Below are positions 13,171 to 47,446 of a stretch of DNA of 64,000 bases, one piece after another (position 1 is the stretch's first letter; the number at the start of each line of letters is the position of its first letter). The position numbers were made by a program, and so were the translations under genes. Below the pieces are notes generated by a model. The model did not search any database, was not told the origin of the DNA, and worked only from the letters and a program-made list of their open reading frames with translations. The stretch is from NCBI GenBank assembly GCA_002269645.1, contig NIVC01001158.1, positions 1 to 64,000 of the forward strand, written 5' to 3'. Origin of the DNA: Macrostomum lignano (Eukaryota).

Positions 13171-13191
13171 TTTTAGTCTATTTTATAGAGT

Positions 13192-24343: not shown

Positions 24344-24429
24344 TACTTGCAGTGGAATAAAATAAGAACAAAAATATAATAAACAAGTTGTGATAATGTA
24401 GAATAATATAGAGTATCAAATAACTTAAG

Positions 24430-24947: not shown

Positions 24948-24971
24948 TTTAGAATTTATTTTTTCAAAAAA

Positions 24972-25402: not shown

Positions 25403-25605
25403 TACCATAATCGATTTTAGCTAGCATGATTTAGCAAATTTTTAGCCACGTCTTAACTGAACTGCGCATAACCAAGACTCAGCAACCACTACCACCTCAA
25501 ACCCGCATTGGCTCTTGCGGGTGAGCTTATTGGCTAAGAGCTCAAACGCGAGCGGAAAACGTTTTTTTAAGTAAAGGCGGAAGCCGGCCAGCCTTTTTCA
25601 CTTAA

Positions 25606-26260: not shown

Positions 26261-26446
26261 CGGTTACGGGTTATGACTTAGCCAATTTGAAATACGATCG
26301 CATTAGCAGTGTTGAGTTATTTTTAGTAACAAGTCATTTCCAGTCTCTCTTTTGTATAATCTTATCAACCAATGAGAACGCTTATAATGGACACCAGTGG
26401 GGCCATTTTTAAATGAAAGTACTGTCACACTTTCATACTTTCACAT

Positions 26447-28540
26447 TATTATCCCAGAGGTTAAATAGAGCTCGGCGGGACATGTTGGAATCAACAGAGA
26501 GTAAAGTATTAGAGCTAGGATGGGGTTTGGCTCTCTGGAGAGAGAGGAAACACTAATTATATAGTAGATCCCAGTGAGGTGGTGTGAGCCAATAGGAAAC
26601 TACCAGTGCCGACCCTCGTCATACATATTTTCCCAGGGCGGGGATTGGTAGGGTTTGAGACCCACAACCTGAAGAACGTCCTGCAGATTTTCCTCCTCAG
26701 TCCTGGCTACCGGAGGGGTCTCTGTCTTGGCTCGCTTGGCAGGCGGTGGGGCCTCAGGTGCCGGCTTGAAGAGCTTGTCCAAACGGGCGGCAAACATCCG
26801 GCGCCACAGTTCAGGCGTGAATTCGATCGTGTAGCGCCAATTAAACTTTGGGTCCACGTTGAGCCAATCGCGCAGCAAACGAATCCTTCCTTGCGAAGCC
26901 TCGACAGCCTTGAAATTGCCCAACACGACCCGCTTGTACACGTGAAGGCGGGCAGCAGCCTCCAGGTCAGGGCGCGCAGCTTCGAGCTTCTTCCACTCTT
27001 GCTCGCTCAAGTAGATTGCAGGGAAGCCGTCCTTCCACACTCCAGCCTCGTTGGTGTAGAGCAGCCGAACTTCAATCAAGTTGTGCTCGGTTTCAAATGT
27101 GGGCTTCCGCGCCACAAAGTTTTCGTATACAGAGATAGAAGACATGATTTAGCAGTAGCAGCAGCACAGAGCTCTCTGACAGCCGTGCAGCGCCTTATAT
27201 ACCCCCGGATGGAGGGTGGGTGGGGGTGATTTTGGGGACGATTTCTGATGATTTTGGTTGGTTTTTGGTGATTTGACCAATAACAGTCGAGCTGAGCAGA
27301 TTTTTAGTATATATACAGACCCCCAGAACCGGGGTAGAGAGATAATCCTTCTCTCTCCGCTCTCTGTTTTTAAAATGGCTAAACGCAGCGCAGCACCAAC
27401 TGCTTTCCTGGCTGATAAGAGGCAGCGTCTTTATGGTAGGTTTTAATTAATTTCTGGCCAGTTGTTTATCAGTCTAGACTAGAGTTGCTAGGGTGCTGCG
27501 GCAGGGTACCGATAAGAATTAGCAGTGGGGTGAGCTGCTGCGACAGCTGCAAGGGTTTAGCGCTGTCTAGACAAGTTTCAGCACGGTGAGCTGCGCGTGT
27601 AAACAAAGACTGGGGCTGCAGATAGGGTGCGTGTACGGAGCTGCCCAGACAGGCTGCAGCTGGGGTGCTGATAAGAAATTGGCAGGGTCTGTAACAGATA
27701 ATCGTTGGGGTGCGGTGACAGAGAGTTGCTAGGGTTAACTGCTGCAGGGAATTGGAGGGGTGCAGCAGAGTAAACAAAGACTGGGGCTGCTGCGAAAGCT
27801 GCAGGGGTCTAGACTGGAGTTGCTAGGCAGGAGGGTACGTTGCTGATAAGAAATAGGCAGGGTCTGTAACAGATAATCGTTAGGGTTAAAAAATTGCAGA
27901 CACGTGCTAGGTAGATTTAGCGGTGCTGTGATAGCTACACGGGCTGGCAGGGACAGCGTAAACGAAGACTGGGGCTGCAGATAGGGTGCTGCGCGTGTCC
28001 AGACAGGCGGGGGGTGTGCTGCGGTTGGGGTACTGATAAGAAATTAGCGGGGTCTGTAGCAAAAACAGACAGAGTTGCTGGGGAGGGCTTGACACGTTTC
28101 AGCAGGGTTAGCAGCAACAGCTGCAGGGTCTGTGAGAATTGGAGGGGTGCAGAAGAGTAAACAAAGACTCTGATAAGAAATAGTTGCAGGATAGAGTTGG
28201 TGAATTGCTGCTGTTAGGGTGCTGCGACAGAGGGGTGACAGGGCTGATAGGAACTTGCTGGGATAGAGTTGGGAGGGGTGCCTCTTTGTCCGAACACGCT
28301 GGGGCCAGGAAAATGACAGATTCTTCTGGTTTTTATCTCCTTGTGTTTTTTTTCAGACGCGTTTGTCCCGCCAACACAGCCGGAATCTGTTACCGGACCG
28401 GGTGAGTTATCTAGCCCCCATTCCCCAGACAGACCCAGGCTGACTCACACCCCCATTCATTCTCTGCAGGTTTTACGGCCCGGCTGTATAATCAACGCGA
28501 CCTGCCTAAGTTTAGGGCAAAGGGCGTTGAATATGTGGTG
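26447..28540 (+). mobile_element. Diverged partial copy (A1) of the family-A element: PC4-like gene plus pPolB exons 1-3
   Basis: Colinear with 32480-34371. Exon 1 27375-27435, exon 2 identical to 34181-34225; exon 3 is cut at 28540 by an AGTAGT terminus. Confidence 0.85.
26600..27145 (-). CDS. Tandem PC4-like ssDNA-binding protein (copy A1)
   Basis: LIEVRLLYTNEAGVWKDGFPAIYLSEQEWKKL; homolog of 32630-33163. Confidence 0.7.
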   Translation of the reverse strand: MSSISVYENFVARKPTFETEHNLIEVRLLYTNEAGVWKDGFPAIYLSEQEWKKLEAARPDLEAAARLHVYKRVVLGNFKAVEASQGRIRLLRDWLNVDPKFNWRYTIEFTPELWRRMFAARLDKLFKPAPEAPPPAKRAKTETPPVARTEEENLQDVLQVVGLKPYQSPPWENMYDEGRHW

Positions 28541-28896
28541 AGTAGTATGTAAAAGTACGCTTCCAGACCCAGAGGCACCTATTAAACAGCACATTTGAAG
28601 GGCTAGAGAGGGGGACACGGGGGGGAATAAAAAAAACACATGTAAACACTAAACAGCACAATTAAACACAATTAAACACCCCCAATACCCCCAATAACCC
28701 CATTTAATCAAAAACACTATTAACACACCCAATCAAATCCTCACATCAGAAATCAAACCCCCATGTCCCCCCTCTAGCCCTTCAAATCCATTGTTTCAAT
28801 AGGATCTGATCTAGAAGCGTACTTTTACATACTACTACATCCAAACACACACTAACACTCTCTAACCGTCGCCAGCGCCGCAGGCGCAAAGGGTCT
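28541..28896 (+). repeat. Left TIR of Polinton B (~356 bp)
   Basis: The inner 210 bp match 47236-47446 in inverted orientation. The outer 145 bp are inferred from the AGTAGT start. Confidence 0.7.
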
Positions 28897-29457
28897 AGAA
28901 TGGTAGAAAAGAATAGAAGCTATTTTTAGCCAGCTCACCCACGCACTCAACATTCCATTAAGGCAGATTTTTCGTTTTCGTTTCGTTTTCAAAAATCTGG
29001 CCTTAATGGAATGTGGGCATTCATCACCCCACCACGCAGCTAAATGGAAATTGGACATTCATCACCCCACCCACGCAGCTAAATGTTATATAAATGCATA
29101 TAAGAAGAACTCAATTTATCACGAAGCGAAAAAAAAAATTAACCCAGCTCACATCAACGAAAATGCCATCATATAGCACCCTCAATGAGCGTCTAAGAGC
29201 CGCAGCAAATACTTGCAACTCGAACCCAAACTCTTCGACGACACCACCAAAACTCCATGTTTCGTAACACCGAGCTTAATAATTTTATTAATCAAAGAAT
29301 TACATCGTGGAGAAACGAAGAAAGATTTTTCAACGCGCTCAAGGTAATAAATAAAATCCTATTCATTTAATAACTATATCTAGCTATTAACACTTACTAA
29401 TTTATATTTTAGAAATATCATCAACAGCGACAAGCGTATCAGAAGGCACAGAGGCGA

Positions 29458-29734
29458 GTGGAGGAGTTTATGGAAGACATCCAATATCAACCAACTCAAG
29501 ATATGCCGCCACAAAACCAAGATCAACCAACTCAAGCTATGACTCCACAAAATCAAGATCAACCCACTCAAGCAAACAATGTAGCAGTCTGTCCAATCTG
29601 CCAGCACACGCCAACCAGGCCTATTGGAAAACACATGTTGTCAGGTAATGATATGTGAAGTGTGTTACAATCAAGCAATGGCGAATGGTCTAAGAAACTG
29701 CCCAAACTGCCGCGCCGTATGGAATGTTGATTGA
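29458..29734 (+). pseudogene. RING-finger protein (one frameshift)
   Basis: CPICQHTPTRPIG / TCCQVMICEVCYNQAMANGLRNCPNCR, preceded by QDQPTQ repeats. Confidence 0.7.
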
Positions 29735-29964
29735 GAACGAGGAAAAGAATCAATGACATATTGACAAACATCTCTTATAGAAAAGGCGCACAAAAGTAAA
29801 ATATAAAATTCTCTGTATTCAAACGAAGTTATTACCATCTTTGGAACGAAAAAAAATACACAAGCTTTATGTCTACCCTTTTTGTGTCTCCATATCGTCT
29901 CAATTTTCTGTTACTAAAAATAGACAAAAATGACACACGTTACACATATACAAAATCTAAATGA

Positions 29965-30340
29965 ATTGCAAGTAGGAGACACCAGTAGAATACAGAGGTG
30001 AGGGTCTTTTCGACATAACAGGCGCTGCAGCAAATGCATTTAAAGACAATATGCCACTAATAGCACAAGCAGGCTCAGCAGCAGGCCTCTTAACCACGCA
30101 GTCAAGGGGGGAATAGAAGCAGCTAAGGCAGTAGAAGAGCTCAAGAAATTGAGAGAATTTAACGACACCCTCTCGCAAATAAAAGCAATAAATATTTATA
30201 GCTAGCACAAGAAAGCCACCCAACTCACACAAGCTACTGAAAACACCTACTAAAAGTAACCCATTGAGCAATAAAGATATCCAAGATTTTAATAAAATGT
30301 TAACCTCAATTAAAGGCGGAAAAGGATTAAAGAAGTTTTA
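29965..30340 (+). pseudogene. Ala/Gly-rich amphipathic virion-type protein
   Basis: GEGLFDITGAAANAFKDNMPLIAQAGSAAGL...IEAAKAVEELKKLREF; homolog of 5290-5536. Confidence 0.5.
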
Positions 30341-31561
30341 GTAATATAAAAATGGGCTCAGTTAATGATGAAAATCGTCACTACTAAGCAACGGTAGATC
30401 CGTCGATTTTGGAGGTGGGGTGGGTGTCAACCCTCCTCGCCTCTCATTGGCTGGCGCCCCGATCACTAGGTGATCGATACCCGTATCGATATCGGCGCTC
30501 GGCGCGCGCGCGCCGCAGGCGCGTGGCGCCAAGCGCCGCAGGCGCACCTACCGATATGTACCGATATGTATGCTCACCCTACCGACATGTACCCCGATAT
30601 GTACACCCTCCCGAGCCGCAGGCGCACCCTCCTGAGCCGCAGACGCCCATGCCGCAGGCGCCCTGAGTGTACACTCTCCCGAGCCAAAGGTACACTCTCC
30701 CCAGTACACTCTCCCGATATGTACACTCTCCACAGTACACTCTCCCGATATGTATGCATACACAGATATGTAGTCAACGATATTAGGCTAGTGAAAACTA
30801 CTTATAGTAGGTGAAATTGAGTATATTTACATAAAAATGTAGATAAAACATATTGGTAGGTGAATAATGACGCATATTACATATTAAAATGTACATATTG
30901 GAGCATATGAGCAGCAAAAACACACAATGTAGGTGCATATTTGACAGAAATAGACAAAGCAGGTACTGTAAGCACTACATAGGTGGTAATACACACAGTA
31001 TAAAGTAGGTTTACAAAGTGTACTTTCGATACATATCGGATTAATGTATAAAGCGGGTTTACAAGGCATGCATATATCAGAAGGTGTAGTTGTATAATAC
31101 AGGCGCGCATGTATAATCAGATTATAGGCAAACGCCCAGGTGCAATTTCAACAGACGCGTAAATAATGTCACACCGACTAAAGAGTAAATATTGTCTAAC
31201 CCGCAGGTGCATAAATATTAAACAAAAGCGGTTCGGGGAAATCCCAAAAGGGAGGTTTTAGCCGCCCGTTTTCGCCGCCCTAACCCTCTTATGGGTACAA
31301 TTGCGTTGAAAATATTTCAAGTCATTAGGTTGTAAGACCCTCCATATTTTAGGTGGGTGGACTCGAGCCCGGGGCCAGCCCATTACAGTTTTTTGGGCCG
31401 GCCCCTCTGCCAATTTCCTCCCTAGGTGCGAGCTATCAGAATTGGTCTTTTAACCCCCGTGTATACACACATAGAGGCCCCCAGCTAGCGTCCCATTCTA
31501 ACCTACCCAGTGTACAGTGTTGGGTTCCCCAAACCGCGTACAAAGAGAAATACCTTATCAG

Positions 31562-32518
31562 TCAATCTCCATACGCTCCCTCAGGGCTGTCTCGTACGCG
31601 GCCTCTTCCTCCACGCTCTCGAAGCAGTAGTCGGATGACTGGCAATGTGGAAATTATAACAGTCAATGTAGATAGAATATAGGCAAGGTATATGATTAGA
31701 TGAGTTGTGTATACAGTGTAATATCTAACCAAACCTAAATCCTCCTCCAGCCGCCACAGGCGTAGAGACGCTGTATAGCGCACCAACGAAAGGTGCTCCT
31801 CCCAGTTGGTAGACCGGATAGCAGTAGCTATCCGGACCGGATAGCAGACTGCAGGCTCATCCCACGCAGTCGGGCGCGCTCCCGGACCGGCCAGGTACGC
31901 CTCCGAGTCGGGGGCATACGAATTACGCCCTATTAGCCAATCCTGGTGTAGCGTCTCCGCCTCCAGCACCTCCCGCAGATCAGCCCCTCGGGCCACCAAA
32001 GTATCAAGAACCCGATTAAAGGCTCTGACAAAGGTGGCTTGGGAGGGCAGGCCGCCAGGGTGGCGAGACCTCAACCAGTCAATGTCCCCGCGGAAAAATG
32101 AGGCCACAATGCGAGGAAAGCGCTCACGAACCACGGCGATCTCCTCAGACATATCCTCGTCCTCATCGTCGAAGAGAAGGAGCGTAGAGGCTGATGATAT
32201 TGAGGCCCGGTGGGAGGTAGTTGAAGCAGAGGCGGCAGCGGCAGAGACGGGCGCAGTAGAGACAGAGGCGGCAGCAGCAGCAGGGGCGCCGTTCACAACC
32301 CCGCCGATAGCCAGCAGCGGGAGGTCAAAAACTTCAGATTCGGTGTCGCTATCATAGGACATGGCCCAAGCTAGATATTGATCAGCCTCCCAATTATCGG
32401 TTCCGTTGTTTTCAGTGCCTAGGGGAACTATGTGTTCAGGGATATCACCCTCGAGGCTGGTTAACTCTTCAGTCGGGCGATTATTATCCCAGAGGTTGGA
32501 TAGAGCTCGGCGGGCCAT
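31562..32518 (-). CDS. Orphan 318-aa acidic/Ala-rich protein (left arm)
   Basis: Open ATG ORF with translation identical to 38756-39712; no recognisable family. Confidence 0.6.
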   Translation of the reverse strand: MARRALSNLWDNNRPTEELTSLEGDIPEHIVPLGTENNGTDNWEADQYLAWAMSYDSDTESEVFDLPLLAIGGVVNGAPAAAAASVSTAPVSAAAASASTTSHRASISSASTLLLFDDEDEDMSEEIAVVRERFPRIVASFFRGDIDWLRSRHPGGLPSQATFVRAFNRVLDTLVARGADLREVLEAETLHQDWLIGRNSYAPDSEAYLAGPGARPTAWDEPAVCYPVRIATAIRSTNWEEHLSLVRYTASLRLWRLEEDLGLVRYYTVYTTHLIIYLAYILSTLTVIISTLPVIRLLLRERGGRGRVRDSPEGAYGD

Positions 32519-32629
32519 GTTGGAATCAACAGAGAGTAAAGTATTAGAGCTAGGATAGGTTCGACTCTCCAGAGAGGAAACACTAATTATATAGACGGAT
32601 CGAGTGAGGCGGTGCGAACCAATAGGAAA

Positions 32630-33163
32630 CTAGCAGTCCCAACCCTCGTTATACAGATTTTCCCAGGGCGGAGATTGGTAGGGTTTGAGACCCACAAGCT
32701 GAAGAACATCCTCCTCAGTCCTGGCTACCGGAGGCGTGTCTGTCTTGACTCGCTTGGCTGGAGGGGGTGCCTCAGGTGCCGGCTTGAAGAGCTTGTCCAA
32801 ACGGGCGGCAAACATCCGGCGCCACAGTTCAGGCGTGAATTCGATCGTGTAGCGCCAATTAAACTTTGGGTCCTGATTGAGCCAATTGCGCAGCAAACGG
32901 ATCCTCCCTCGCGAAGCTTCAACTGCCTTGAAATTGCCCAACAGGACCCGCTTGTTCACGTGAAGGCGGGCAGCAGCCTCCAGGTCAGGGCGCGCAGCTT
33001 CGAGCTTCTTCCACTCTGGCTCGCTCAAGTAGATTGCAGGGAAGCCGTCCTTCCACACTCCGGCCTCGTTGGTGTAGAGACGCCGAATTTCAATCAAGTT
33101 GTGTTCAGTTTCAAATGTGGGCTTCCGCGCCACAAAGTTTTCGTATAGAGAGATAGAAGACAT
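32630..33163 (-). CDS. Tandem PC4-like ssDNA-binding protein
   Basis: LIEIRRLYTNEAGVWKDGFPAIYLSEPEWKKLEAARPDLEAA aligns without gaps to the PC4/SUB1 core as I recall it ([42 protein letters not shown]). The second half repeats the pattern. Confidence 0.7.
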   Translation of the reverse strand: MSSISLYENFVARKPTFETEHNLIEIRRLYTNEAGVWKDGFPAIYLSEPEWKKLEAARPDLEAAARLHVNKRVLLGNFKAVEASRGRIRLLRNWLNQDPKFNWRYTIEFTPELWRRMFAARLDKLFKPAPEAPPPAKRVKTDTPPVARTEEDVLQLVGLKPYQSPPWENLYNEGWDC

Positions 33164-33404
33164 GATTTAGCAGCAGCAGCAGAGAGCTCTCTGACAGCCG
33201 TGCAGCGCCTTATATACCCCCGGATGGAGGGTGGGGTGGGTGATGATTTTGGGGGGTGATTTTTGATGATTTTGGTTGGTTTTTGGTGATTTATCCAATA
33301 ACAGGCGAGCTGAGCAGATTTTTTAGTACATATACAGACCCCCCAGAGCCAGGGTAGAGAGATAATCCTTCTCTCTCCGCTCTCTCACGCTCTCTGTTTG
33401 CAAA

Positions 33405-36400
33405 ATGGCTAAACGCAGCGCCACCGCAACTGCTTTCCTGGCTGACAAGAGGCAACGTCTTTATGGTAAGTTTTAATTAATTTCTGACCGTCTAGGCTAG
33501 ACTGTAGTTGCTAGGGTGGGGGGTACTGCGGCACGGGGTGAGCTGCTGCGACAGCTGCAGGGTCTGTGGGACCGCAGAGTAAACAACAAAGACTGTCACT
33601 GCTGCGACAGCTGCGGGGGTCTAGACTGGAGTTGCTAGGGTGGGGTGCAGATAAGAAATTGGCAGGGTCTGTAACAGAGAGTTGCAGGGGAGGGCTAGAC
33701 AAGTTTCAGCCGGGTTAGCAGCAGCAGCAGCTGCAGGGTCTGTGGGACAGCAGAGTAAACAAAGACTGGGGCCTCGGGTGGGGTGTTGTCTAGACAGGGA
33801 GGGGTGTGCGGCAGCTGATAAGAAATTGCTGCAAAAAACAGAGAGTTGCTAGGATGCTGCGGCAGAGTACTGATAAGAAATTGGCGTGGTCTGTAACAGA
33901 TAATCGTTGGGGCGGGCTAGACAAGTTTCAGCCGGGTGGGGGGCAGAGAGTTGCTGGGACTGTGTAGCGCGGGGGCAGACTGATAAGAAATTGGCAAGGG
34001 CTGTCTAGACAGGTTGCAGCTAGGTGCAGATAAGAAATTGCTGCAAAAAACAGAGAGTTGCTGTGGGAGGGGTGCTGCAGAGTAAACAACAAAGACTGGA
34101 ACTGCTGCGACAGAGGGTTGCTGGGGCCAGGAAAATGACAGATTCTTCTGGTTTTTTTTTATCTCCTTGTGTTTTTTCAGACGCGTTTGTCCCGCCAACA
34201 CAGCCGGAATCTGTTACCGGACCGGGTGAGTTATCCAGCCCCCCATTTCCCACACAGACCCGGGCTGACTCACACTCCCCCATTCCCCCCATGCAGGTTT
34301 TACGGCCCGGCTGGATAATCAGCGCGAGCTGCCCAAGTTTAGGGCAAAGGGCGTCGAGTATGTGGTGCGTATTACCAACACCGAAGATTTGCGGGAGCTG
34401 TTTGTCGACATGCTCGAAGTTTTCAAGCAAGATTTGGCAGGCGAGGATTTCATGGCTGCGAAATTCGAGAGCGACAATATGCTCAAAGCAGCCCATACTC
34501 CCCCGGTGCGTGCAGCCCGCATGACGGCTGAATTATTATTCAAGCACATTGACAAGATTGTGCAGTCGGATGCCACTGTATTGTCAGGCAACTTTTCTAT
34601 CCGCCTGCTAAAAGCCTGGGTACCTCGAGGTGGCTGCGCCCTCGAGAACAAACATGTAGAGGAGCGCCACGCCTTCTCCAAGCACTATGTCCGCATCACC
34701 AACTCGGACAAGAGATGCCTGCTGCGAGCGCTTGTTGTCGCATGCGCCTACCTGCAATTTGTGGTCAAGTCCATCACCGAGCGGCTGTGGCGCACGATCA
34801 AGGCCAATTCGCCCACGCAGACTAAGCTGGTGGCTGAGCTACAAATCGAAGCGGGCCTCTACACGGTAAGTTTATAGTATTTTCATGGATTACTAAAAGA
34901 ATTTTTACGATAAGGAATACTAAAAGATATATTTTCTGATAAGAATTTTTACGCAGTATCATGGAATACTAAAAGAACCATACTCTGATAAGAATTTTTA
35001 CGATAAGGAATACTAAAAGAATTTTACATAGTATCAGGGAATACTAAAAGAAATATTTTACCCCCACACAGACTCTTCAAACCGTCTCGCAGGCCGGTCC
35101 TTTCGGGGTGGATGCACTGTCCGAAGCGATCCGTGCCCTGAACCGGCTGCATCCAGGCCATGATTTCGGTGTACGAGTGTACCGGGCAGAGGAGGCCAAC
35201 AGGTGCATCTTCAACCTGCCTGGCACCGAGATTCTGCACCTGCACCTGATTGAGCAGCACTTTAATGTGGTTACAAAGCTGCCTGCGTTTTTCGGCTCCG
35301 ATCACTACTGCCCCAAGTGCGAGATGGCCTACGACTGCGCCAACGCCGAGCACAAGTGCGCTGATGCCTGCAGTACATGCAAGACTCCGGGCTCCAACTG
35401 CAAGCATAACCGCGCATGTGAGATGCCATGATTGCGGGCTAAATTGCTATAATGCTCAGTGCCTAGAAAATCACAAGCGCAAGAATAAGGCGGGCAGATC
35501 GCGCTGCGATTCAGTCCACGTTTGCGGCACGTGTGGTTATCTAGAAGAACTAAAAGTAGGCCAGCCCCCTGAGCATCAGTGCCGTTACGCAAAGTGTCCA
35601 GTCTGCAAGCAGTACGACGAAACGGCCACCCACGAGTGCTTTGTCACCCCGCCCAAAGCCAAAGAGTCTAGCGCCCCGTATGTTTACTATGATTTTGAGA
35701 CGTACGTGGACTCTGGCAAGCAGCACCGGGTACACTTGGTTACGGCTGCCACCTCCTGCGAGGCGTGTCCCAAACTCTTCCCCAGGCCCCGCTGCAGCGT
35801 GTGCGGGGGACTACACAGCTCAGCCAATTGCATTGCGGGACGCAATCTGGCGCTGGATTTTACGAGCTGTGTCTCGCACAATGACTGTGCCTGCGGGATG
35901 CGAGAGTTTGTATCTGTCGGGCCGCACTCTATCGATGCCTTTTACTGCTGGCTGACTAGTGTGTTCAAGCAGGGGGCAATTGCATTTGCGCACAATGGCT
36001 CTGCGTATGACGCATTCCTCCTGCTCGGCGCCCTACTCAACGGACTGGCCAAGAAGAAGCCCCAAGTGATCTTCCAGAACAGCAACCTAATGTACATGAA
36101 GTGCGACAAGATCACGTTCAAGGACAGCCTCAACTTTATCCCTATTGGTCTGGCGCAATTCCCAAAGGCGCTTGGTTTGGGCACACAACTGACCAAAGGA
36201 GATTTCCCGCACGTGTTCAATCAGCCTCAAAATTGGGGGTACGTAGGTCCCTACTGCTCAATTGATATGTACGGCGGGAAGAAGAATAAGCAGCACGACT
36301 CCATCGCCGACTGGCTGGCCAAGCAGGAGGGCAAAGTGTTTAATTTTAATAAGGAGTATCTGGACTATTGCCTGCAGGACACGCTAATTTTGCGGGAAGG

Positions 36401-37015
36401 CTGCCTGAAATATACCCGCCTGATTAAGGACATTTGCGGACTGGACGCATTTGTCCAATCCAACACCATTGCGGGCTTGGCCATGGCTGTATTCACCACC
36501 AAGTTTATGGAGCCCAACACTCTTGGGGTGATTTCCCGCCGGTCGGATGTACAGTCGCACAAGGCGCGGTGCTGGCTGGCACATTTGAATGCAACCGAGT
36601 TTGGCGGCCGGTTGCGGACAGCCGACTCTGGCGGCGAGGCTTTCGCCATGGGCCGTAAGGTGGACGGTTTCGACCCGGAGACCAGGACAGTGCTGCAGTT
36701 TCATGGCTGTTTCTTCCATGGCTGTCCCAAGTGCTTCCCCAACGGTGACGTGCTGCACCCGCTCAAGAACCAGCCAATGCGGGCAATTTATGAGGAGACT
36801 GAGCGCTTCACCCGGCTGCTCTCCACTGCATACAATGTACGTGTTCTGTGGGAGCACGACTATCAGGGCGAGGGAGCGCCAGTCCAGCAGCCTATACGCC
36901 TGGAGGAAGCCCTGTTTGGCGGCCGTACCGAGGCTTTTGTCCCGCACGCCGAGGCCACCGAGACTGTAGAGCTGCGCTATCGGGATGTGGTACACACTGT
37001 GGATGTGGTACACTT

Positions 37016-37049
<34 letters not shown>

Positions 37050-38038
37050 GACATGCGTTTGAGTTTATCTTATCCTCTAATTCTCTATTATCCTTATTAT
37101 ATTATATTATATTATCCTTATACTTATCCCTAGGTGTCGCTCTACCCGACTGTCAACAAGTTTGACAAGTACCCTGTCGGGCACCCGGTTCACCACCCCG
37201 TGCCTCATCTACTGGATGAGCAGCAGCTGGCCCGGTATTTTGGTATCGCTGAGGTGTCGATTCTGCCGCCAACCAATCTCCACATTCCGCTACTGCCCGC
37301 CAAGATTAGCAAGAAGCTGGTTTTCGGCCTCTGCCGCGTCTGCATGGAGACCCAGTGCAGCAGCGAGTGTACACACACTGACGCTGAGAGAATGCTCCGC
37401 GGCACGTGGTCGACCCCAGAGCTCCACAAGGCCCTGCAGTTGGGTTACAAGCTGCAGTCAGTTCATGCCCTGGCCTATTGGACCGAGACTCGCACGGGTT
37501 TGTTTGCAGATTATGTAAACACTTTTTTGAAGCTCAAAGCCGAGTCTAGCGGTTCGCCGGGGATGACTGAGGACGCCAAGGCTGCCTACATGGCCAGCTT
37601 TTTCGAGCGCGAAGGCCTCCGGCTTGAAAAGGTGGAAGAAAATCCCGGCCTGCGCCTTGTGGCCAAGATTTTTCTAAACTCGTAAGTTTTTCTACTTGCA
37701 GTGGGGCCGTGTTTTTCTACTTACAGTAGCCAGATATACAAAAATTTATTTTTCCCTGCAGGCTCTGGGGCAAATTCTGCCAGCGCGACGACCTGACCTC
37801 CACAGAGATTGTGGACAGCTACGAGGCGTGGCTGCAGCGCCTGACAGACCCCTCGATCAAGGTCAAGTCGTGCGAGCCAATTGGGGAGAGCTTTATGATG
37901 CTCGAGTACAAGCCCCGATTTGGCGGTGCTGGCGAACGGGCATTCAAGTACGCTAATGTACCTATTGGCGTTTTCACCACCTCCCACGCCCGGCTGCGAC
38001 TCTACGAGGCTCTGGAGGGTCTAGGAACCCGAGTCATT
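33405..38038 (+). pseudogene. Protein-primed DNA polymerase B (Polinton pPolB with Vsr-like insert), 6 exons, one frameshift, truncated before motif C
   Basis: Exons 33405-33465, 34181-34225, 34297-34865, 35072(or 35093)-36989, 37134-37681, 37762-38038. Motifs YDFET, AHNGSAYD, KGDFPHVFN, VDG...QFHGCFFHGCPKC, LFGGRTEAF, DV|VSLYP and KIFLNS|LWGKF are restored by GT-AG splicing. Frameshift near 35415. Confidence 0.93.
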
Positions 38039-38755
38039 CCGGGCCTCAATATCATCAGCCTCTACGCTCCTTCTCTTCGACGATGAGGACGAGGATATGT
38101 CTGAGGAGATCGCCGTGGTTCGTGAGCGCTTTCCTCGCATTGTGGCCTCATTTTTCCGCGGGGACATTGACTGGTTGAGGTCTCGCCACCCTGGCGGCCT
38201 GCCCTCCCAAGCCACCTTTGTCAGAGCCTTTAATCGGGTTCTTGATACTTTGGTGGCCCGAGGGGCTGATCTGCGGGAGGTGCTGGAGGCGGAGACGCTA
38301 CACCAGGCCTTCACGTGAACAAGCGGGTCCTGTTGGGCAATTTCAAGGCAGTTGAAGCTTCGCGAGGGAGGATCCGTTTGCTGCGCAATTGGCTCAATCA
38401 GGACCCAAAGTTTAATTGGCGCTACACGATCGAATTCACGCCTGAACTGTGGCGCAGGATGTTTGCCGCCCGTTTGGACAAGCTCTTCAAGCCGGCACCT
38501 GAGGCACCCCCTCCAGCCAAGCGAGTCAAGACAGACACGCCTCCGGTAGCCAGGACTGAGGAGGATGTTCTTCAGCTTGTGGGTCTCAAACCCTACCAAT
38601 CTCCGCCCTGGGAAAATCTGTATAACGAGGGTTGGGACTGCTAGTTTCCTATTGGTTCGCACCGCCTCACTCGATCCGTCTATATAATTAGTGTTTCCTC
38701 TCTGGAGAGTCGAACCTATCCTAGCTCTAATACTTTACTCTCTGTTGATTCCAAC

Positions 38756-39712
38756 ATGGCCCGCCGAGCTCTATCCAACCTCTGGGATAATAATCGCCCG
38801 ACTGAAGAGTTAACCAGCCTCGAGGGTGATATCCCTGAACACATAGTTCCCCTAGGCACTGAAAACAACGGAACCGATAATTGGGAGGCTGATCAATATC
38901 TAGCTTGGGCCATGTCCTATGATAGCGACACCGAATCTGAAGTTTTTGACCTCCCGCTGCTGGCTATCGGCGGGGTTGTGAACGGCGCCCCTGCTGCTGC
39001 TGCCGCCTCTGTCTCTACTGCGCCCGTCTCTGCCGCTGCCGCCTCTGCTTCAACTACCTCCCACCGGGCCTCAATATCATCAGCCTCTACGCTCCTTCTC
39101 TTCGACGATGAGGACGAGGATATGTCTGAGGAGATCGCCGTGGTTCGTGAGCGCTTTCCCCGCATTGTGGCCTCATTTTTCCGCGGGGACATTGACTGGT
39201 TGAGGTCTCGCCACCCTGGCGGCCTGCCCTCCCAAGCCACCTTTGTCAGAGCCTTTAATCGGGTTCTTGATACTTTGGTGGCCCGAGGGGCTGATCTGCG
39301 GGAGGTGCTGGAGGCGGAGACGCTACACCAGGATTGGCTAATAGGGCGTAATTCGTATGCCCCCGACTCGGAGGCGTACCTGGCCGGTCCGGGAGCGCGC
39401 CCGACTGCGTGGGATGAGCCTGCAGTCTGCTATCCGGTCCGGATAGCTACTGCTATCCGGTCTACCAACTGGGAGGAGCACCTTTCGTTGGTGCGCTATA
39501 CAGCGTCTCTACGCCTGTGGCGGCTGGAGGAGGATTTAGGTTTGGTTAGATATTACACTGTATACACAACTCATCTAATCATATACCTTGCCTATATTCT
39601 ATCTACATTGACTGTTATAATTTCCACATTGCCAGTCATCCGACTACTGCTTCGAGAGCGTGGAGGAAGAGGCCGCGTACGAGACAGCCCTGAGGGAGCG
39701 TATGGAGATTGA
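38756..39712 (+). CDS. Orphan 318-aa protein (right arm copy)
   Basis: Translation identical to 31562-32518. Confidence 0.6.
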   Translation: MARRALSNLWDNNRPTEELTSLEGDIPEHIVPLGTENNGTDNWEADQYLAWAMSYDSDTESEVFDLPLLAIGGVVNGAPAAAAASVSTAPVSAAAASASTTSHRASISSASTLLLFDDEDEDMSEEIAVVRERFPRIVASFFRGDIDWLRSRHPGGLPSQATFVRAFNRVLDTLVARGADLREVLEAETLHQDWLIGRNSYAPDSEAYLAGPGARPTAWDEPAVCYPVRIATAIRSTNWEEHLSLVRYTASLRLWRLEEDLGLVRYYTVYTTHLIIYLAYILSTLTVIISTLPVIRLLLRERGGRGRVRDSPEGAYGD

Positions 39713-40977
39713 CTGATAAGGTATTTCTCTTTGTACGCGGTTTGGGGAACCCAACACTGTACACTGGGTAGGTTAGAATGGGACGCTAGCTGGGGGGCCT
39801 CTATGTGTGTATACACGGGGGTTAAAAGACCAATTCTGATAGCTCGCACCTAGGGAGGAAATTGGCAGAGGGGCCGGCCCAAAAAACTGTAATGGGCTGG
39901 CCCCGGGCTCGAGTCCACCCACCTAAAATATGGAGGGTCTTACAACCTAATGACTTGAAATATTTTCAACGCAATTGTACCCATAAGAGGGTTAGGGCGG
40001 CGAAAACGGGCGGCTAAAACCTCCCTTTTGGGATTTCCCCGAACCGCTTTTGTTTAATATTTATGCACCTGCGGGTTAGACAATATTTACTCTTTAGTCG
40101 GTGTGACATTATTTACGCGTCTGTTGAAATTGCACCTGGGCGTTTGCCTATAATCTGATTATACATGCGCGCCTGTATTATACAACTACACCTTCTGATA
40201 TATGCATGCCTTGTAAACCCGCTTTATACATTAATCCGATATGTATCGAAAGTACACTTTGTAAACCTACTTTATACTGTGTGTATTACCACCTATGTAG
40301 TGCTTAGAGTACCTGCTTTGTCTATTTCTGTCAAATATGCACCTACATTGTGTGTTTTTGCTGCTCATATGCTCCAATATGTACATTTTAATATGTAATA
40401 TGCGTCATTATTCACCTACCAATATGTTTTATCTACATTTTTATGTAAATATACTCAATTTCACCTACTATAAGTAGTTTTCACTAGCCTAATATCGTTG
40501 ACTACATATCTGTGTATGCATACATATCGGGAGAGTGTACTGTGGAGAGTGTACATATCGGGAGAGTGTACTGGGGAGAGTGTACTGGGGAGAGTGTACC
40601 TTTGGCTCGGGAGAGTGTACACTCGGGGCGCCTGCGGCATGGGCGTCTGCGGCTCAGGAGGGTGCGCCTGCGGCTCGGGAGGGTGTACATATCGGGGTAC
40701 ATGTCGGTAGGGTGAGCATACATATCGGTACATATCGGTAGGTGCGCCTGCGGCGCTTGGCGCCACGCGCCTGCGGCGCGCGCGCGCCGAGCGCCGATAT
40801 CGATACGGGTATCTATCACCTAGTGATCGGGGCGCCAGCCAATGAGAGGCGAGGAGGGTTGACACCCACCCCACCTCCAAAATCGACGGATCTACCGTTG
40901 CTTAGTAGTATCGTCTTTATTTTATAGGAGAAATAGTAGACACCTTAAATTTAGATGATAACAAACATAGTCACTCA

Positions 40978-41877
40978 ATGTTAAAAAGATTAGATCGTTT
41001 AGGTAAAAAATTGGATTATGATATTGATACTTTTAAACTCGCTGCAAAATATGCACAAGAAGGAAGACCCATTTCATTTAAGCACAACCGTAAAACCTAT
41101 AGGCTAACAGATTCTGATGTAAAATTTTTAATGGAGAGTCACATAAAAAGGGATGGTGGATTACTACCCTTTCTACCAATCCTTTTAGGACTTGGGGCAG
41201 CAGGAGCAGCCGGTTTAGCAGGCAAAAGGATTCATGATAACCGAAAACAGTGAGCAAAATTAAAAGAAAAACAAGGGGGCATACTTCCACTTGCAACTTT
41301 GCTCCCAATAATTTTTGGAGGAATTGCCGCGGCTGAAGGAGTCGCTGGTGGAGCGGCTGGAGTTGCAAAAGCAGTAAATGACAAAAAAGCTGCGGATGAA
41401 AAAGCTAAACGAGATGCAGAATTTCAAAGACAGCAAATAACGCAGGACGCACAATTCAAACAAAAACTTATAGACACAATTAATAGTAGTTCAGCAACAC
41501 CAGAACAAAAAAAATGCAGAAGCTAGGTTAGCAGCCGGAAAAGGTTTAATTTTAAAAGGAACAACTCACGGTGAGGGTTTAATCTTGCAAGGAATGACCC
41601 ACGGAAGCGGAGTTGTCGCAGACAAATTTCATGAATTCGGTCAAACCTTGGAAAAACCGGCGAAGAAGCTAAAGGATTTTTCGACAATATCGGAGCTAAT
41701 TTTAGACCTGCGGTTCAGAAAATTTTTAATAAATTAGGAAAAGATTTTAACATAATTAAAAAACATGACGGAAGCGGATTATATCTCGAAATGCGACCAA
41801 AAGCAGGTTCAGGAATCTTCTTAAATGCAAACGTTATGGGTAGTGGCTTACTGTTACCAAAAGCGGAACTCGAATAA
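40978..41877 (+). pseudogene. Polinton B small virion/core protein cluster with amphipathic Gly/Ala helices and GxG repeats
   Basis: DGGLLPFLPILLGLGAAGAAGLAGK; GGILPLATLLPIIFGGIAAAEGVAGGAAGVAKAVNDKKA; repeated GKGL/GEGL/GSGV/GSGL/GSGI/GSGL. Confidence 0.65.
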
Positions 41878-41960
41878 GCTCCTGTGGGGAGGGTCAGGAT
41901 GCCCAAAACATAAAATTAAAAAACCAATAATTCAAACATTGTATAAATTTTATTCTATAA

Positions 41961-43205
41961 AATGGAAATATTTTAGCTCAAATCGACAACCCAGAACTTA
42001 GAGCTCAATTAATAGCTCAAATCAAAGCACAACGAATTGCCGATAGGGCGGAAATAGAAGCTAGAATTAGAGCAGAAAATGAAATCAATTTACAAACACA
42101 ATTAGATATTATCGAACAAACAGCATCACCACCAGCGAATGGTGCTGAAATAATAAATATTAATATTGATATGAATACAGATTATAAAGAATATTTTAAA
42201 CAAATGAAAGAAAAATTAAAGACCGTATTAGACGAATATACTATGAGACAAAATAACAAACGGCAGCCAGTTAGGTATAAAATTGAAATTGAAACAGAAT
42301 TTAAAAAACCAAATATGATAAATGCAATTTCAGAAATTGAAGTAATAAATACCTTTTCACAAGAATCATATAAGTCACTTTTATCAATGGGAACATATAC
42401 CAAACAATTTGATAATATCGAAGCAGAGTTTGATAAATGGATTGATAAGATGACAGAAAACGGATCAGGCTTCATTTTTGTTTCTTATAACTCAGCCACA
42501 GTAAAGATTGTTCCTATTGAAGTTCTTCGAGGACGATCACATATGGATCCAGGATTTACATCTCCCATGATCATAAATCCCAACAATGAAGATGATAAGT
42601 GTTTATTATGGTGTTTACTAATTCAAAAATATCACAAACAAGTAAAATGGCATGTAAATAAAATATATTATTAGAGATTATGTGGATGAAATAATAATGA
42701 AAGACATATCCTACCCAGTATCCATAGATGATATATATAAGATTGAAAAAATGAATGGGTTAAATATTAATGTATTTTCAATTGAACAGCCAAACGATTG
42801 GGTTAAAGCACACGATAAAGAATGATATAAAAAAAAGATGTTTTCTTATTAAGCCAGCAACTGATATAACAGCACCAGACCAAATCGATTTATTGTACAT
42901 ACAGCATGAAAACAATACACATTATATATACATAAAAGATATTTGTTCCTTATTAAGAACAAATGGAAATAGAATGCCAATATGTAGAAATTGTTTCACA
43001 TTTAAAAAGAATGAAAGTGCTCTTAAAAACCTAATTATTTACTAATGTTGTAATGCCCAATGAAAAAGAACAAATATTAAAGTTCCAACAACATTTTATG
43101 GCAATTAAAAAACCAATTGTAATATATGCTGATTTTGAAGCATCAAACATACCCCTCAAATGTCCTAAACAACAAGATACGGCTGAATGTACAAAAAATT
43201 AGCTC
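41961..43205 (+). pseudogene. Second pPolB type (Polinton B), N-terminal to Exo I only, frameshifted
   Basis: GSGFIF, INPNNEDDKCLLWCLL, YPVSIDDI.KIEKMN.L.INVF, IDLLYI...HYIYIKD, CRNCF, KKPIVIYADFEA; cut immediately afterwards. Confidence 0.85.
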
Positions 43206-43229
43206 AACAGCTCAACAACAACGGGAACT

Positions 43230-43761
43230 ATGTTTGTATTAAGGTAATTAATAAGAGCAGCGGTATCTGCGCCGGCTGCTGGTGCTATGGTAGGAAAATT
43301 TATTGCTCCACCATCTCCCTTATCGGGCATCCATCCAACATTATCACCAACCTGTTTTGATAAATAAGTATAATTTAAATGTTTAAGAACTCCATTAATC
43401 TCTGCGGGGTTTGTTGATGTCTCAACCTCAGCTCCGTTAATTCTTAGTTGCGCTTGGGAAAAACATTTATAAAACCAATCTTTCTCGATAACAATACCAG
43501 AACGATCGGCTATATCGCCGGCCGCAAGAGCTGTTCCGTCATTTCGTGTATATAAGCATCTAACACGGAAAATGCGTTTAGTTGCATTAGTATCGTATTA
43601 GTTGCACCAACATCAAAAGTTACCGTTCCGGTAGTAAAATTGTTTGAATTATCGCTTGTTGGTAGGGTATAATTTAAATCTTTTGCCCTGACCTCATTGA
43701 TATATTGCCGTGGTTTTTTGAAATAATACTTATCACTCCATCTGTTTTTTGTTTCAGCCAT
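43230..43761 (-). pseudogene. Double-jelly-roll major capsid protein, N-terminal part (frameshifted, truncated)
   Basis: After a frameshift: KDWFYKCFSQAQLRINGAEVETSTNPAEINGVLKHLNY...GWMPD, matching the Polinton MCP pattern F....L.I.G.E.E....P....G...W..D. Confidence 0.65.
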
Positions 43762-43795
43762 TTTTTTAAGTTAAAAAAGTTTTTTATGTTAAAAA

Positions 43796-44473
43796 ATGAG
43801 TCAATTTATGGATGTTGATGGTGAATTAGCGATTTATAAAGAGAAACAAAGATATTCTGATTTTGTTAGGGATTTACAAAAAAGAAAGTTAGGAATACAG
43901 TTAGCTGGTGAAAGATTTGCTGCTCCTTTTGTTAATCCTATTACGGGGAAAATTAGTGAATTAACAAAAACTGATAAAGAGCTTCTTGAAAAAATTGCTA
44001 AGAATACGGAGCCAAAAGAGGAAGATGTAATTGAGGATGAACCGCCCGCTTATGATGTTGATCAAGCACAATTGAGAGTTGCAGAGATTAGGGCTGCAGA
44101 ACTGGGTGGTAGGGAACAATATCAGAGAGCTTCTCCACAAAGTATTAGCGTGACGGATTTAGATAATGATAATTATCGAATTGGTGGGGTTGATAAAAAT
44201 CGGAATGAGCTATATAGAGAATTGGGTGAAGCATATAATATTATTATGAACCCTAGAGTAAAGTTTAATCCTGATTTATATACTGTGGATGAATTAGTAA
44301 GTGCTAAATTTTTTTATGATGAGTTAGGAGTAGGGGGTGTTAAAAACACTAGTTTGTATAAAAGGATTGATCAATCAATAAATAACAAACGAGCTGTTGG
44401 CGAAGGATTTAAAACTCCACGAAAACTTGTTTTAGCCGCTGCCAAAGCTGCTGGACATACAGGAATTATTTAG
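43796..44473 (+). CDS. Conserved-type Polinton hypothetical protein
   Basis: 225-aa ORF with NPITGKISEL near the N-terminus and a C-terminal GEG...RKLVLAAAKAAGHTG, which resembles the L..ASK.AGNT motif I recall from adintovirus proteins. Confidence 0.4.
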   Translation: MSQFMDVDGELAIYKEKQRYSDFVRDLQKRKLGIQLAGERFAAPFVNPITGKISELTKTDKELLEKIAKNTEPKEEDVIEDEPPAYDVDQAQLRVAEIRAAELGGREQYQRASPQSISVTDLDNDNYRIGGVDKNRNELYRELGEAYNIIMNPRVKFNPDLYTVDELVSAKFFYDELGVGGVKNTSLYKRIDQSINNKRAVGEGFKTPRKLVLAAAKAAGHTGII

Positions 44474-44497
44474 ATGTTAAATTTATTTTTTCATAAA

Positions 44498-45129
44498 ATG
44501 GAAACTAAAAAGATCTGTAGTAGATGTAAAGAAGAGAATTTTTTGCTTGAGTTTAGATATAGAATAACCCAGAATCGATATGAAGGTAATTGCAAAGAAT
44601 GTGGGAAATTTTATCAAAAAGAATATTTGCTATCCTCGATATTATGCTGAAAATAAAGAAAAAATTATAGAGAAAGTTAATATATGCACAAAACAATAAA
44701 GAAAAAGTTAATCAATATAGAAAAACAAGATATAGTGAAGATGAAAATTTCAAACTTATTGTAAACACGCGAACTAGAATAAATAAACTATTAAAATCAA
44801 CTAATGGTCAAAAAGACAACCATACTATTTATTATCTTGGTTGCCCAATTGAATTCTTTAAAGATTGGTTAAATTTCACCAAACATTATTATTTGCCAAA
44901 AGATTATATTGGTGTTTTGCATGTGGATCATTTTATTCCTGCTTCATCTTTTGATTATCGCAATGAGGAACAAATTAAAAAGTCGGAACATTGGACAAAT
45001 AAAAGATACCTAGCTGCTATGGATAATAAAACTAAATTTGTTAAAAAACCAACAATTAAAGAATTTGCAAAACAATTAGTGTTAACTTGTATTTTTAAGG
45101 CTATTAAAAATGAGCCAACTTTTGTTTGA
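44498..45129 (+). pseudogene. HNH endonuclease of the NCLDV/PLV type with an N-terminal CxxC...CxxC module (frameshifted)
   Basis: METKKICSRCKE...NCKECGK; YLGCPIEFFKDWL; LHVDHFIPASSFD...QIKKSEHWTNKRYLAAMDNKTK. Confidence 0.75.
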
Positions 45130-45830
45130 AGGTGGATTTTTAGATGTTCAAAAAGGACTAACAGGCTTACCACCAATCTTTACTACTGGAAAATATACTG
45201 GGGAACTACACCTACCATCAATGAACTTCACAGGTTAACCCGTGGCCTGAGTGGTAGAAGCAAAGCTACTGCTAGTCACTATTTGTGGCGACACCTTCAA
45301 ATTGCGTGAAACCCGTCATACAGCTTCAAGTACCACTTCAATTGAGAAATCTTTTGAAGGAACAGAGGTAACTCCTCTTCCCAAAGGTAACAAGCTTGAA
45401 GACATGGTGACAATGCGCAGTCAAGCTCCTAAGTATAAAAGTATAAGGAGAAGGTTCAGAGAGCAGACGGAGGTGGGTGGTAATTTAACCGCTTAAGGTG
45501 TGCTCCAGCCTCTTTCGAAAGATTGAGGGCAAACTACCCGGGACTAGGCTGGATTTGAGATTAAATCCTGATGATACTCCAAAAGCTGATTCAATTCCCA
45601 TCAATGGTATTGATTGGTTAGCATATTATCATGACTTAGCATACAGAGATGCTGACAAGAATTCTCCTGAGGAAGCATAAGATTAAAGCATGAAGCCGAT
45701 AGAAAAATGATTGAAGGATTAGATAATTTACAGGGATTATCGGTAAGCCAGAGATTAACTCGGTGGATGGTTAAAAAGATCTTGCAATCTAAAGTGAAAT
45801 TTGGTTTGGGAATTAATTACAATCAACATG
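45110..45830 (+). pseudogene. PLA2-domain gene of Polinton B, split by a group I intron (exon 1 45110-45235; exon 2 from 45537)
   Basis: Spliced reading MSQLLFEGGFLDVQKGLTGLPPIFTTGKYTGELHLPSMNFTG|PGTRLDLRLNPDDTPKADSIPINGIDWLAYYHDLAY; frameshift near 45678, then KHEADRKMIEGL...ILQSKVKFGLG. Confidence 0.9.
45236..45536 (+). ncRNA. Group I self-splicing intron, subgroup IC1-like, 301 nt, no internal ORF
   Basis: Helices found by eye: P1 CAGGU/GCCUG with U-G at the 5' splice site; P2; P2.1; P3 CACCUUC/GGAGGUG; P4 UGCGUG/UGCGCA; P5abc with A-rich bulge and GAAA loop; P6; P7 G(A)GAGCA/UGCUCC; P8; P9; P9.0; P10. Confidence 0.93.
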
Positions 45831-45859
45831 AAAATAATTGTGTAGAGTGTTTGTTATTA

Positions 45860-46697
45860 AGTGGTGGTGGGTTAAGTTCTGATGAGGCAAAGGTTCTTCA
45901 CAAAGAATACCGAAAGCCTAAATTTTATAGAAAAATCATTAACTTCAAAAAGAATGAAATTTGATATGCTGATTTAATGTCAATGCCGAACGAAAGAGGA
46001 TATAAATATATCTTAACCATACTGGATAGTTATATCTGGATATATCTTACTCGAAATGCGTGGCTGTTCCTTTGAAATCCAAAAAAGGAGAGGAGATTGC
46101 CGCTGCTTTTAAAAATCTTAGAGAAAAAAGTGATAGGTTGTGTGTTGATGAAGGAAAAGAATTTTACAATCATCATATGTATAAATTGTATCATTTTGAA
46201 AAAGGAAAAGAAAGGAAAAAAGACGCGAATGGTGAGTATATTAATAAAATTTATTCTATTTATGGAGAAAGCAAAAACGCACTGATTGAAAGAGTTAATC
46301 GAACTTTAGGTAAGAAATTGTGGTTTCAGTTTAGTATTAATGGTAACCAAAAGTGGGTAAAAATATTACCAGACGTTGTGAAAGATTATAATAATTCATA
46401 TCATTCAGCTATAAAAATGACTCCTCAACAAGCTATAACACTCCTGAAAATGTTAAAGTCACTTTTGGAGAGTTTGAAAAAAAGAAAACTAAAGGTTTTA
46501 AAGTTGGTAATTCTGTTTATATTTATAAATGGAAAGATAAGTTTGAAAAGGGAAGAAAAGGATATTGGAAGATAAGTGAGAAATTTACCATCAGTAAAGT
46601 TTTAAATACAAATCCTACAACCTATATCATTGCTGATAAAGATGGTGAAGAAATATTGGGTTCCTTTTATGAGAACCAGATAATATCTGCGAACTAA
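45860..46697 (+). pseudogene. Polinton rve integrase (stops/frameshifts), initially in frame with the PLA2 C-terminus
   Basis: LHKEYRKPKFYRK, *YADLMSM...GYKYILTILDSY, AVPLKSKKGEEI, CVDEGKEFYN, KNALIERVNRTL, YNNSYHSAIKMTP, FKVG...FEKG...GSFYE. Confidence 0.9.
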
Positions 46698-47235
46698 GTT
46701 CGTACAATTACTTAAGGCAACAGGGTAGTAAATTTTTTATAACAAAGAAAAACAATATTATTACTAATATAATTATTGGCCGGCACGTTTCCGATATAGG
46801 AATAATCATGAAAAGCATGCGTATCATTGATACGATTTACCTTCATTTTTTTAAATATATTTTTCACAATAAATGTAGTTTCTGTTACTGAGTAATAATT
46901 CATTTTTACATAAAAATTTCAATTTCATTCTCCGAGTCACTAGTTTCATATGAACTATTTGTTGACTCGGAATCAGTTGAACGAACCTCCCAATCGTCTG
47001 AATTTAAATAATCTCCAAGTTGAAATATTAACTCACCCGCTCGTTCTAGATCATACAAACCATCCAAATCTAACGGATAAAGTTTTAGATCTTTTTTGTC
47101 ATCATATTTTAAATATACTTCATCAATTATTCCATTCAAAATATGCTGTTTTATAATCTCTGAATTTTTAGCAACAGTCTTAAAAGTATCACTAACTGAA
47201 AAGGTGTAAACTCGGTTCATTTTCGTAACAGAAAA

Positions 47236-47446
47236 AGACCCTTTGCGCCTGCGGCGCTGGCGACGGGTTAGAGAGTGTTTGTGTGTGTTTGGATGTAGTA
47301 GTATGTAAAAGTACGCTTCTAGATCAGATCCTATTGAAACAATGGATTTGAAGGGCTAGAGGGGGGACATGGGGGTTTGATTTCTGATGTGTGGATTTGA
47401 TTGGGTGTGTTAATAGTGTTTTTGATTAAATGGGGTTATTGGGGTA
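47236..47446 (-). repeat. Visible part of the right TIR of Polinton B
   Basis: Reverse complement of 28686-28896; runs into Ns. Confidence 0.85.

Follow-up and report, generated by a model that had tools for sequence, protein, structure and literature searches.

A 10,530-bp element of the Polinton/Maverick type was found in the flatworm Macrostomum lignano, in the first 64,000 nucleotides of contig NIVC01001158.1 (forward strand). This whole stretch was analysed and is called the window here. The element is young and non-autonomous. It derives from a multi-copy Polinton family of Macrostomum, and in place of its right part it carries the left 2.6 kb again, in inverted orientation. Its features, followed by two older insertions next to it, are listed below with the source of each call in brackets; TSD stands for target-site duplication and ORF for open reading frame.

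30374..30379, plus strand: left TSD, ATCGTC (sequence)
30380..32966, plus strand: left arm, the natural left end of the element, starts with ACTACT (self-comparison)
31565..32518, minus strand: 318-aa ORF, acidic and alanine-rich (translation)
31942..32210, plus strand: donor of the 269-nt insert (self-comparison)
32633..33163, minus strand: 177-aa protein with a PC4/PUR/Whirly-type fold in residues 1-129 (structure model, Foldseek, VIA)
33405..38038, plus strand: gene of a protein-primed DNA polymerase B, six pieces, truncated immediately before motif C (Pfam, sister models)
38038..38039, plus strand: junction 1, polymerase joined to insert (no microhomology with donor)
38039..38307, minus strand: 269-nt templated insert, a copy of 31942-32210 (self-comparison)
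38307..38308, plus strand: junction 2 (1-nt microhomology, G; patchy similarity upstream, 10/20)
38308..40909, minus strand: right arm, inverted copy of the left arm, ends with AGTAGT (self-comparison)
40910..40915, plus strand: right TSD, ATCGTC (sequence)
28541..47446, unstranded: Polinton B, AT-rich and decayed, host of the insertion (self-comparison, translations)
26445..28540, plus strand: A2, fragmentary relative of the element (83-90% identity), interrupted by Polinton B (self-comparison)

Self-comparison of the window gave one long inverted match, 30380-32967 against 40909-38307, with 99.2% identity over 2603 columns. The two arms are separated by 5,341 bp, and the layout can be written as A B C D / B' / C' B' A', where A is 30380-31941, B is 31942-32210, C is 32211-32966 and D is the unique middle. 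In a global alignment the arms differ at seven places: five substitutions (left coordinates 30475, 30664, 30968, 32114 and 32818), one extra 14-bp minisatellite unit and one homopolymer base. An earlier reading of this locus, made from the letters alone (the sequence-only reading below), had described just such scattered substitutions and small indels, together with a clean TSD. Indeed, ATCGTC is present on both sides, the inverted match ends exactly there, and the sequence further out differs between the sides. For a given pair of ends, a 6-bp TSD is expected by chance in about 1 case in 4096. The termini are ACTACT...AGTAGT, that is, matching ends (ACT)2//(AGT)2 at 30380-30385 and 40904-40909.

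The insertion interrupts a small ORF of Polinton B: the ATG-started frame on the left and the open frame on the right are in the same phase across the TSD. The preserved phase, the exact TSD, a fold-back that halts precisely at the terminus and the seven differences between the arms all speak against an artefact of assembly, whether a chimeric fold-back or a wrongly joined repeat. So does gene model P0018, which differs from the window and carries the same junction 1. On the other hand, the assemblies published for this species are in fragments and mosaics can arise when polyploid genomes are assembled (PMC10733133), a 698-N gap lies 6.5 kb away in the window, and the structure is known here from assembled sequence rather than from reads. 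We consider an artefact, named in the sequence-only reading as one way in which it could be wrong, highly improbable.

Genes of the element

A search with the largest polymerase piece found 30 polymerases among 4,687 candidate proteins of 917-2615 aa. The top 22 (55-99% identity) form the sister set; 21 of them are labelled Macrostomum lignano, and P0014 is grouped with them without a label. Together with the 5' part of a small ORF and a promoter gap, the polymerase gene fills all 5,072 bp of the unique middle, two pieces of which match DNA_pol_B_2 (PF03175; E-values 3.9e-15 and 5.3e-13). It consists of pieces 33405-33465, 34181-34225, 34297-34865, 35072-36989, 37134-37681 and 37762-38038, the first of which is an exon that we infer. 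The frame reads ...LGTRVI up to 38038, then 15 foreign codons and a stop. Judged against the sister models, the cut removes motif C and roughly 120-135 further residues. The gene also has a frameshift near 35405-35420, a point spanned in one piece by six of the ten sister models checked. A search of PDB sequences with the last polymerase exon gave no hits.

Eight of the 22 sister models run from LGTRVI into YADTDS; two more distant ones have YCDTDS, one has the junction peptide, and eleven are without this stretch. Because the eight continue into motif C, the polymerase is truly cut, as had been noticed from the letters, and the long arms are derived. Judging by these models, the genome contains candidate helpers whose polymerase is whole. 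One alternative is that the family naturally has gene-containing terminal inverted repeats (TIRs) of 2.6 kb. TIR length does vary among Polintons; the window contains no full-length relative to show the natural TIR boundary, and the terminal 1.2 kb of the element is reached by no sister gene model. However, sister copies continue where the polymerase is cut, the arm ends in the middle of a gene, and reported TIRs are at most 1,447 bp in vertebrates (PMC8097293) and about 1,500 bp overall (PMC10748475). Natural TIRs of this length, a possibility that the sequence-only reading had also raised, are thus an extremely improbable explanation.

The polymerase gene contains five GT-AG introns:

33466..34180, plus strand: intron 1, 715 nt, GTAAGT...CAG (same position in relative A2)
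34226..34296, plus strand: intron 2, 71 nt (same position in relative A2)
34866..35071, plus strand: intron 3, 206 nt (sister models)
36990..37133, plus strand: intron 4, 144 nt, weak donor GTACAC, splits motif A (sister models)
37682..37761, plus strand: intron 5, 80 nt, splits motif B (sister models)

The junctions of introns 1 to 5 are spanned by 8, 13, 9, 10 and 18 of the 22 sister models, respectively; the models were predicted automatically and do not represent transcripts, and in the case of intron 1 only the acceptor is covered. Exon 2 is identical to that of A2 in 46 of 46 columns, whereas intron 1 (715 nt against 921 nt in A2) matches in 545 of 640 aligned columns. Introns 1 and 3 consist of short repeated motifs, and an AC microsatellite lies inside intron 4.

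The 318-aa ORF has no credible Pfam match, and one sister model suggests that it may contain a small 3' intron. The 177-aa protein had been called a PC4 gene in the sequence-only reading, which holds at the level of the fold. Its structure model (predicted local distance difference test, pLDDT, 76) has human PC4 as the top Foldseek hit (E-value 4.9e-3, root-mean-square deviation, rmsd, 1.9 over 66 columns). VIA aligns it with Pur-alpha (Z 9.4, rmsd 3.8, 118 aligned) and with PC4 (Z 6.7, rmsd 1.7, 66 aligned). The direct Pfam PC4 match has an E-value of only 0.041, whereas that of the relative P0043 is 1.1e-6; P0041, an unrelated repeat protein, was excluded from the alignment. Comparison of this ORF with A2 gives pN/pS 0.32 (18 and 17 changes). 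As modelled, the protein is probably the single-stranded DNA-binding protein of the element. In the right arm the PC4-like ORF is repeated with its 5' part missing, and the 318-aa ORF occurs there a second time.

A Pfam scan of the 18 ORFs of the element at E<=0.01 produced two matches, both to DNA_pol_B_2, and none for the other 16. No genes for integrase, packaging ATPase, protease or major and minor capsid proteins were found among the 18 ORFs, and no unassigned space is left. The element is therefore a non-autonomous derivative and not an autonomous Polinton/Maverick, in agreement with the earlier observation that no integrase or capsid genes remain. An Rfam scan of 26000-47446 gave no matches.

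Junctions, age and formation

The insert 38039-38307 is the reverse complement of 31942-32210 at all 269 positions, and differs at one of 269 bases from the right-arm copy of block B. Its donor sits 756-1,025 nt inside the partner arm, in the same orientation as that arm. The second jump lands at 32966, which is codon 66 of the 177-aa minus-strand ORF. Both jumps had been placed correctly in the sequence-only reading, and two template jumps are the minimum history. The similarity upstream of junction 2 (8/15 and 10/20; P about 0.02, uncorrected for 12 tests) is no more than a weak hint of homology. Hairpins as jump signals were not found: on none of the four sides of the junctions does a 60-nt stretch fold better than shuffled sequence (z -1.5 to +1.5).

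P0018 (UniRef A0A1I8JAR4) ends in the same junction-1 peptide and differs elsewhere from the window. It is the closest copy, with 11 differences in 790 scored positions, compared with 2.2-5.1% in the other 13 models. Over 598 polymerase codons it has no private residues, has two states in common with the window only, and has the family-majority residue at the ten sites where the window has a residue of its own. At position 32187 its left arm has the family state and its junction copy the window state. By this pattern P0018 appears to be a mosaic. Nine of the 13 other models likewise carry no private residues, which suggests that these may be majority-polished repeats. It is likely that P0018 represents this locus or its homeolog in another assembly; less probably, it is a second, recombinant insertion. 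As proof of a second insertion it was rejected as unproven, with only two window-only states shared, whereas P0004, which has a full polymerase, shares four such states. Sharing of residues is reticulate throughout the family copies P0004-P0025, by either recombination among copies or mosaic assembly. Under either reading of P0018, junction 1 is real. It occurs in one of the 22 same-species models, the mosaic P0018, and junction 2 has no such outside support.

The arms diverge by 0.19% (95% interval 0.06-0.45%; five substitutions in 2,587 bp), and the three copies of the 269 nt contain one mutation, as opposed to 5.0 expected at the age given by sister distances (P 0.04). These values bear out the earlier view that the element is recent. 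Since the three subgenomes of Macrostomum lignano differ by 1.4-2.4% (PMC10733133), the insertion is probably younger than their split. On the other hand, the middle contains ten window-only residues in 598 codons, where the arm clock predicts about 1.6 (P 6e-6) and its upper bound 3.6 (P 0.004). This could mean that the insertion is old and common to the subgenomes and that its arms were kept alike by arm-to-arm gene conversion, in which case "recent" would be wrong. The divergence of the subgenomes is consistent with this, and P0018 could then be a collapsed homeolog. However, the changes at the ten window-only sites are more conservative than expected of random ones (P 0.03-0.04; for all 13 sites P 0.011-0.017), and thus most of them probably came from a parent that worked. 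Although it is located outside the arms, the third copy of the 269 nt is equally young (P 0.004-0.04), and four positions in the 269 nt differ from P0006, P0021 and P0025 yet are common to all three window copies. Because the changes are conservative and the third copy of block B is as young as the others, inheritance from a variant parent is favoured over arm conversion, and an old insertion is very unlikely.

Our preferred reading, held at about half confidence, is that the element arose outside the chromosome as a copy-back product and was integrated afterwards. A strand begun at the left end would have stopped at 38038 and primed at 32210 on single-stranded left-end DNA, either the displaced strand or a second left-end fragment. 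After copying 269 nt it would have been released, would have re-primed at 32966 and run to the terminus, giving a product with two left origins. Proteins of intact family members could have replicated this defective product in trans, and a helper integrase would then have put it into the older Polinton B, creating the 6-bp duplication. The two jumps agree in the strand that was read and in the direction of reading, and by its geometry this would be the top strand, displaced by left-end synthesis. The ends of the element hold a 3-nt repeat (ACT ACT), the kind used for jumping-back initiation (PMC8097293). In phi29, subgenomic molecules of 1-8 kb have been linked to template switching by the polymerase (PMC4974454). 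The differences between the arms fit a uniform spread (Kolmogorov-Smirnov P 0.39 and 0.31; scan P 0.12-0.32), as expected if both arms date from one moment.

Several observations weigh against the copy-back origin. No homology that could guide re-priming was found at junction 1 at any of six lengths. Of the five arm substitutions, three are located within 600 bp of the outer end (post hoc P 0.085), which is the direction expected if natural TIRs are older than their extension. No second insertion site was seen in the same-species gene models of 917-2615 aa, and P0018 is more simply explained as a majority-polished version of this locus from another assembly. A history of internal priming and then a backward jump onto the end of the partner resembles end-joining with a templated insert. 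Finally, nothing tells the copy-back origin apart from repair in place: the TSD would survive by either route, and neither the arm clock nor the junction sequences discriminate between them.

Repair in place is a possible route, somewhat short of an even chance. Here a break or excision gap in an integrated Polinton would have been mended from its right TIR on the left end as template: the right TIR would have invaded the left one and copied 2.6 kb inward, and end-joining to the polymerase at 38038 with the 269-nt templated insert would have closed the gap. The first integration would have made the TSD, host repair would have sufficed with no helper after that first insertion, and the product and its TSD would be the same. 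The same route, break repair on the TIR1 template, has been proposed for the recruitment of internal sequence into Galileo TIRs (PMC3573991), and the TIRs of integrated Polintons are implicated in rearrangements in C. elegans (PMC11414722). The junction microhomologies of 0 and 1 nt also agree with repair, as does the position of the insert donor inside the partner arm, as if internal priming had been followed by a restart from the end. The arm differences do lean outward; however, the outer excess is not significant in the scan given above, and two of the three outer substitutions are in CpG context. Moreover, repair needs a rare break within the short time since insertion, and it fails if P0018 is a separate insertion predating this one.

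Of the mechanism proposed in the sequence-only reading, the two template switches stand, and extrachromosomal strand-displacement replication is a plausible setting for them. The loss of genes confirms that the genome is defective, whereas a TSD that also fits in-place repair does not establish insertion of the finished product by a helper integrase. A still stronger scenario, in which the copy-back genome was replicated in trans, swapped sequence with its helpers and was integrated at least twice (at this locus and at the source of P0018), is unlikely. If true, a copy-back genome present at several sites would document both strand-displacement replication and integration in trans directly from sequence. 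The element would then be a fossil of a replication intermediate, in a family with five spliceosomal introns and a reversed end motif. The scheme by which Mavericks replicate is inferred by analogy with adenovirus and phi29. At the time of PMC8097293, no virions of animal Mavericks had been observed. Formation in place would show that long TIRs of Polintons serve as templates for rearranging themselves, a less surprising outcome. In both cases the family is unusual for the introns of its polymerase gene and for its reversed end motif, and it merits annotation; Macrostomum lignano being a laboratory flatworm, the element is open to checking by reads and PCR.

Older Polintons and other contents of the window

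Polinton B starts with AGTAGT at 28541, and its right end is lost in the N gap 47447-48144. Its TIR at 28689-28896 matches 47236-47444 at 98.6%. Polinton B is an internally deleted derivative with many frame breaks; its translations contain broken pieces of what we take to be integrase, capsid protein and polymerase, and there is a weak Adeno_PX match (E-value 0.0028). In 41961-43770 the N-terminal part of its polymerase (plus strand) meets a capsid gene fragment (minus strand) head-on. The TIR of Polinton B (28541-28836 and 47236-47444) contains an inverted copy of its own first 70-80 bp about 240 nt inside. This inner copy occurs at both ends and looks like a small fold-back event fixed in both TIRs. 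At 45560-45760 there is a motif without a Pfam hit that, we assume, resembles the viral phospholipase A2 domain of adintoviruses and parvoviruses. The fragment A2 was inserted first, Polinton B next and the element last. This order agrees with the TIR identities, 98.6% for Polinton B and 99.8% (substitutions) for the arms of the element. The nesting within these two Polinton copies had gone unnoticed in the sequence-only reading, as had the five introns, the polymerase frameshift and the reversed end motif.

Two fragments of a third Polinton-like integrase region, 81% identical to each other, lie at 1-900 and 24400-25403; the rve match at 3-356 has an E-value of 1.6e-6. In 6050-6850 and 12618-13620 there is a weak Prim-Pol match (E-value 0.004) among further ORFs, including a repeat-rich and presumably fibre-like ORF and another that we take to be protease-like. 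These point to additional remnants of Polinton-like elements or related viruses; such elements are densely nested in the window. Transposons were found at 13791-14805, 17064-18230, 19309-22361 and 23118-24272, with reverse transcriptase pieces, a DUF4371 (hAT-like) ORF, a broken pol of the long terminal repeat type and an open 385-aa frame of a mariner-type transposase. Immediately after the N gap, at 48145-57100 on the minus strand, there is a host gene with immunoglobulin I-set domains and long coding-like tandem repeats. Several minisatellites are present, among them 66 copies of the telomere-like 11-mer GGTTAGGGTTT at 62730-63455.

Comparison with known systems

The element shares with Polintons/Mavericks (Eupolintoviridae, adintoviruses) a protein-primed polymerase of the PF03175 family, truncated and frameshifted here, the 6-bp TSD, terminal inverted repeats with short tandem motifs, and the occurrence of many defective copies. 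Defective copies account for 96% of vertebrate Maverick loci (PMC8097293). However, the defect of known defective Polintons is decay or internal deletion, whereas here the right end is replaced by the left one. The termini (ACT)2//(AGT)2 are the reverse of the common (AGT)2//(ACT)2 and fall outside the three vertebrate types listed in PMC8097293. The polymerase contains five GT-AG introns, whereas intact vertebrate Mavericks are intronless, as described in the same source. Introns inside Polinton-like proviruses are also known from eupolintoviral proviruses of dinoflagellates (PMC12166617). Those are introner transposons in protists, whereas the introns described here are in an animal and are common to sister copies.

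A literature search, with most subscription papers and Repbase entries outside its scope, found no paper on copy-back Polintons or on Macrostomum Polintons, which is weak evidence of their absence. The accessible parts of PMC8502044 and PMC4604429 contain no mention of Macrostomum Polintons.

An analogous arrangement is seen in Galileo of Drosophila mojavensis, where internal sequence of one end appears inverted at the other (PMC3573991). However, Galileo is a cut-and-paste transposon without a polymerase, and its longest TIRs are about 1.26 kb, whereas the present element has 2.6-kb arms, duplicated genes and a templated insert.

The element cannot make an active polymerase, integrase or capsid, and in this respect it works as a defective viral genome of the copy-back type would if fixed in the germline. 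Adenovirus defective DNA is a further system of the copy-back kind. The copy-back anatomy is present here, as an inverted copy of one end replaces the other around a unique middle, and membership in this class is plausible but unproven. Copy-back genomes are defined mainly for negative-strand RNA viruses, and arms around a long unique middle make a genome copy-back and not snap-back (PMC13506859). The sequence-only reading had used both words, of which the long middle justifies the first and, by this definition, rules against the second. Unlike copy-back viral genomes, the element, known here from sequence, contains two junctions and forms an integrated part of the germline of an animal. On the other hand, it is similar to them, to the subgenomic molecules of phi29 and to the snapback genomes of adeno-associated virus in that one end is duplicated in inverted orientation, the ends acting in cis are kept, and the genes acting in trans are lost (PMC13506859, PMC4974454, PMC8235507).

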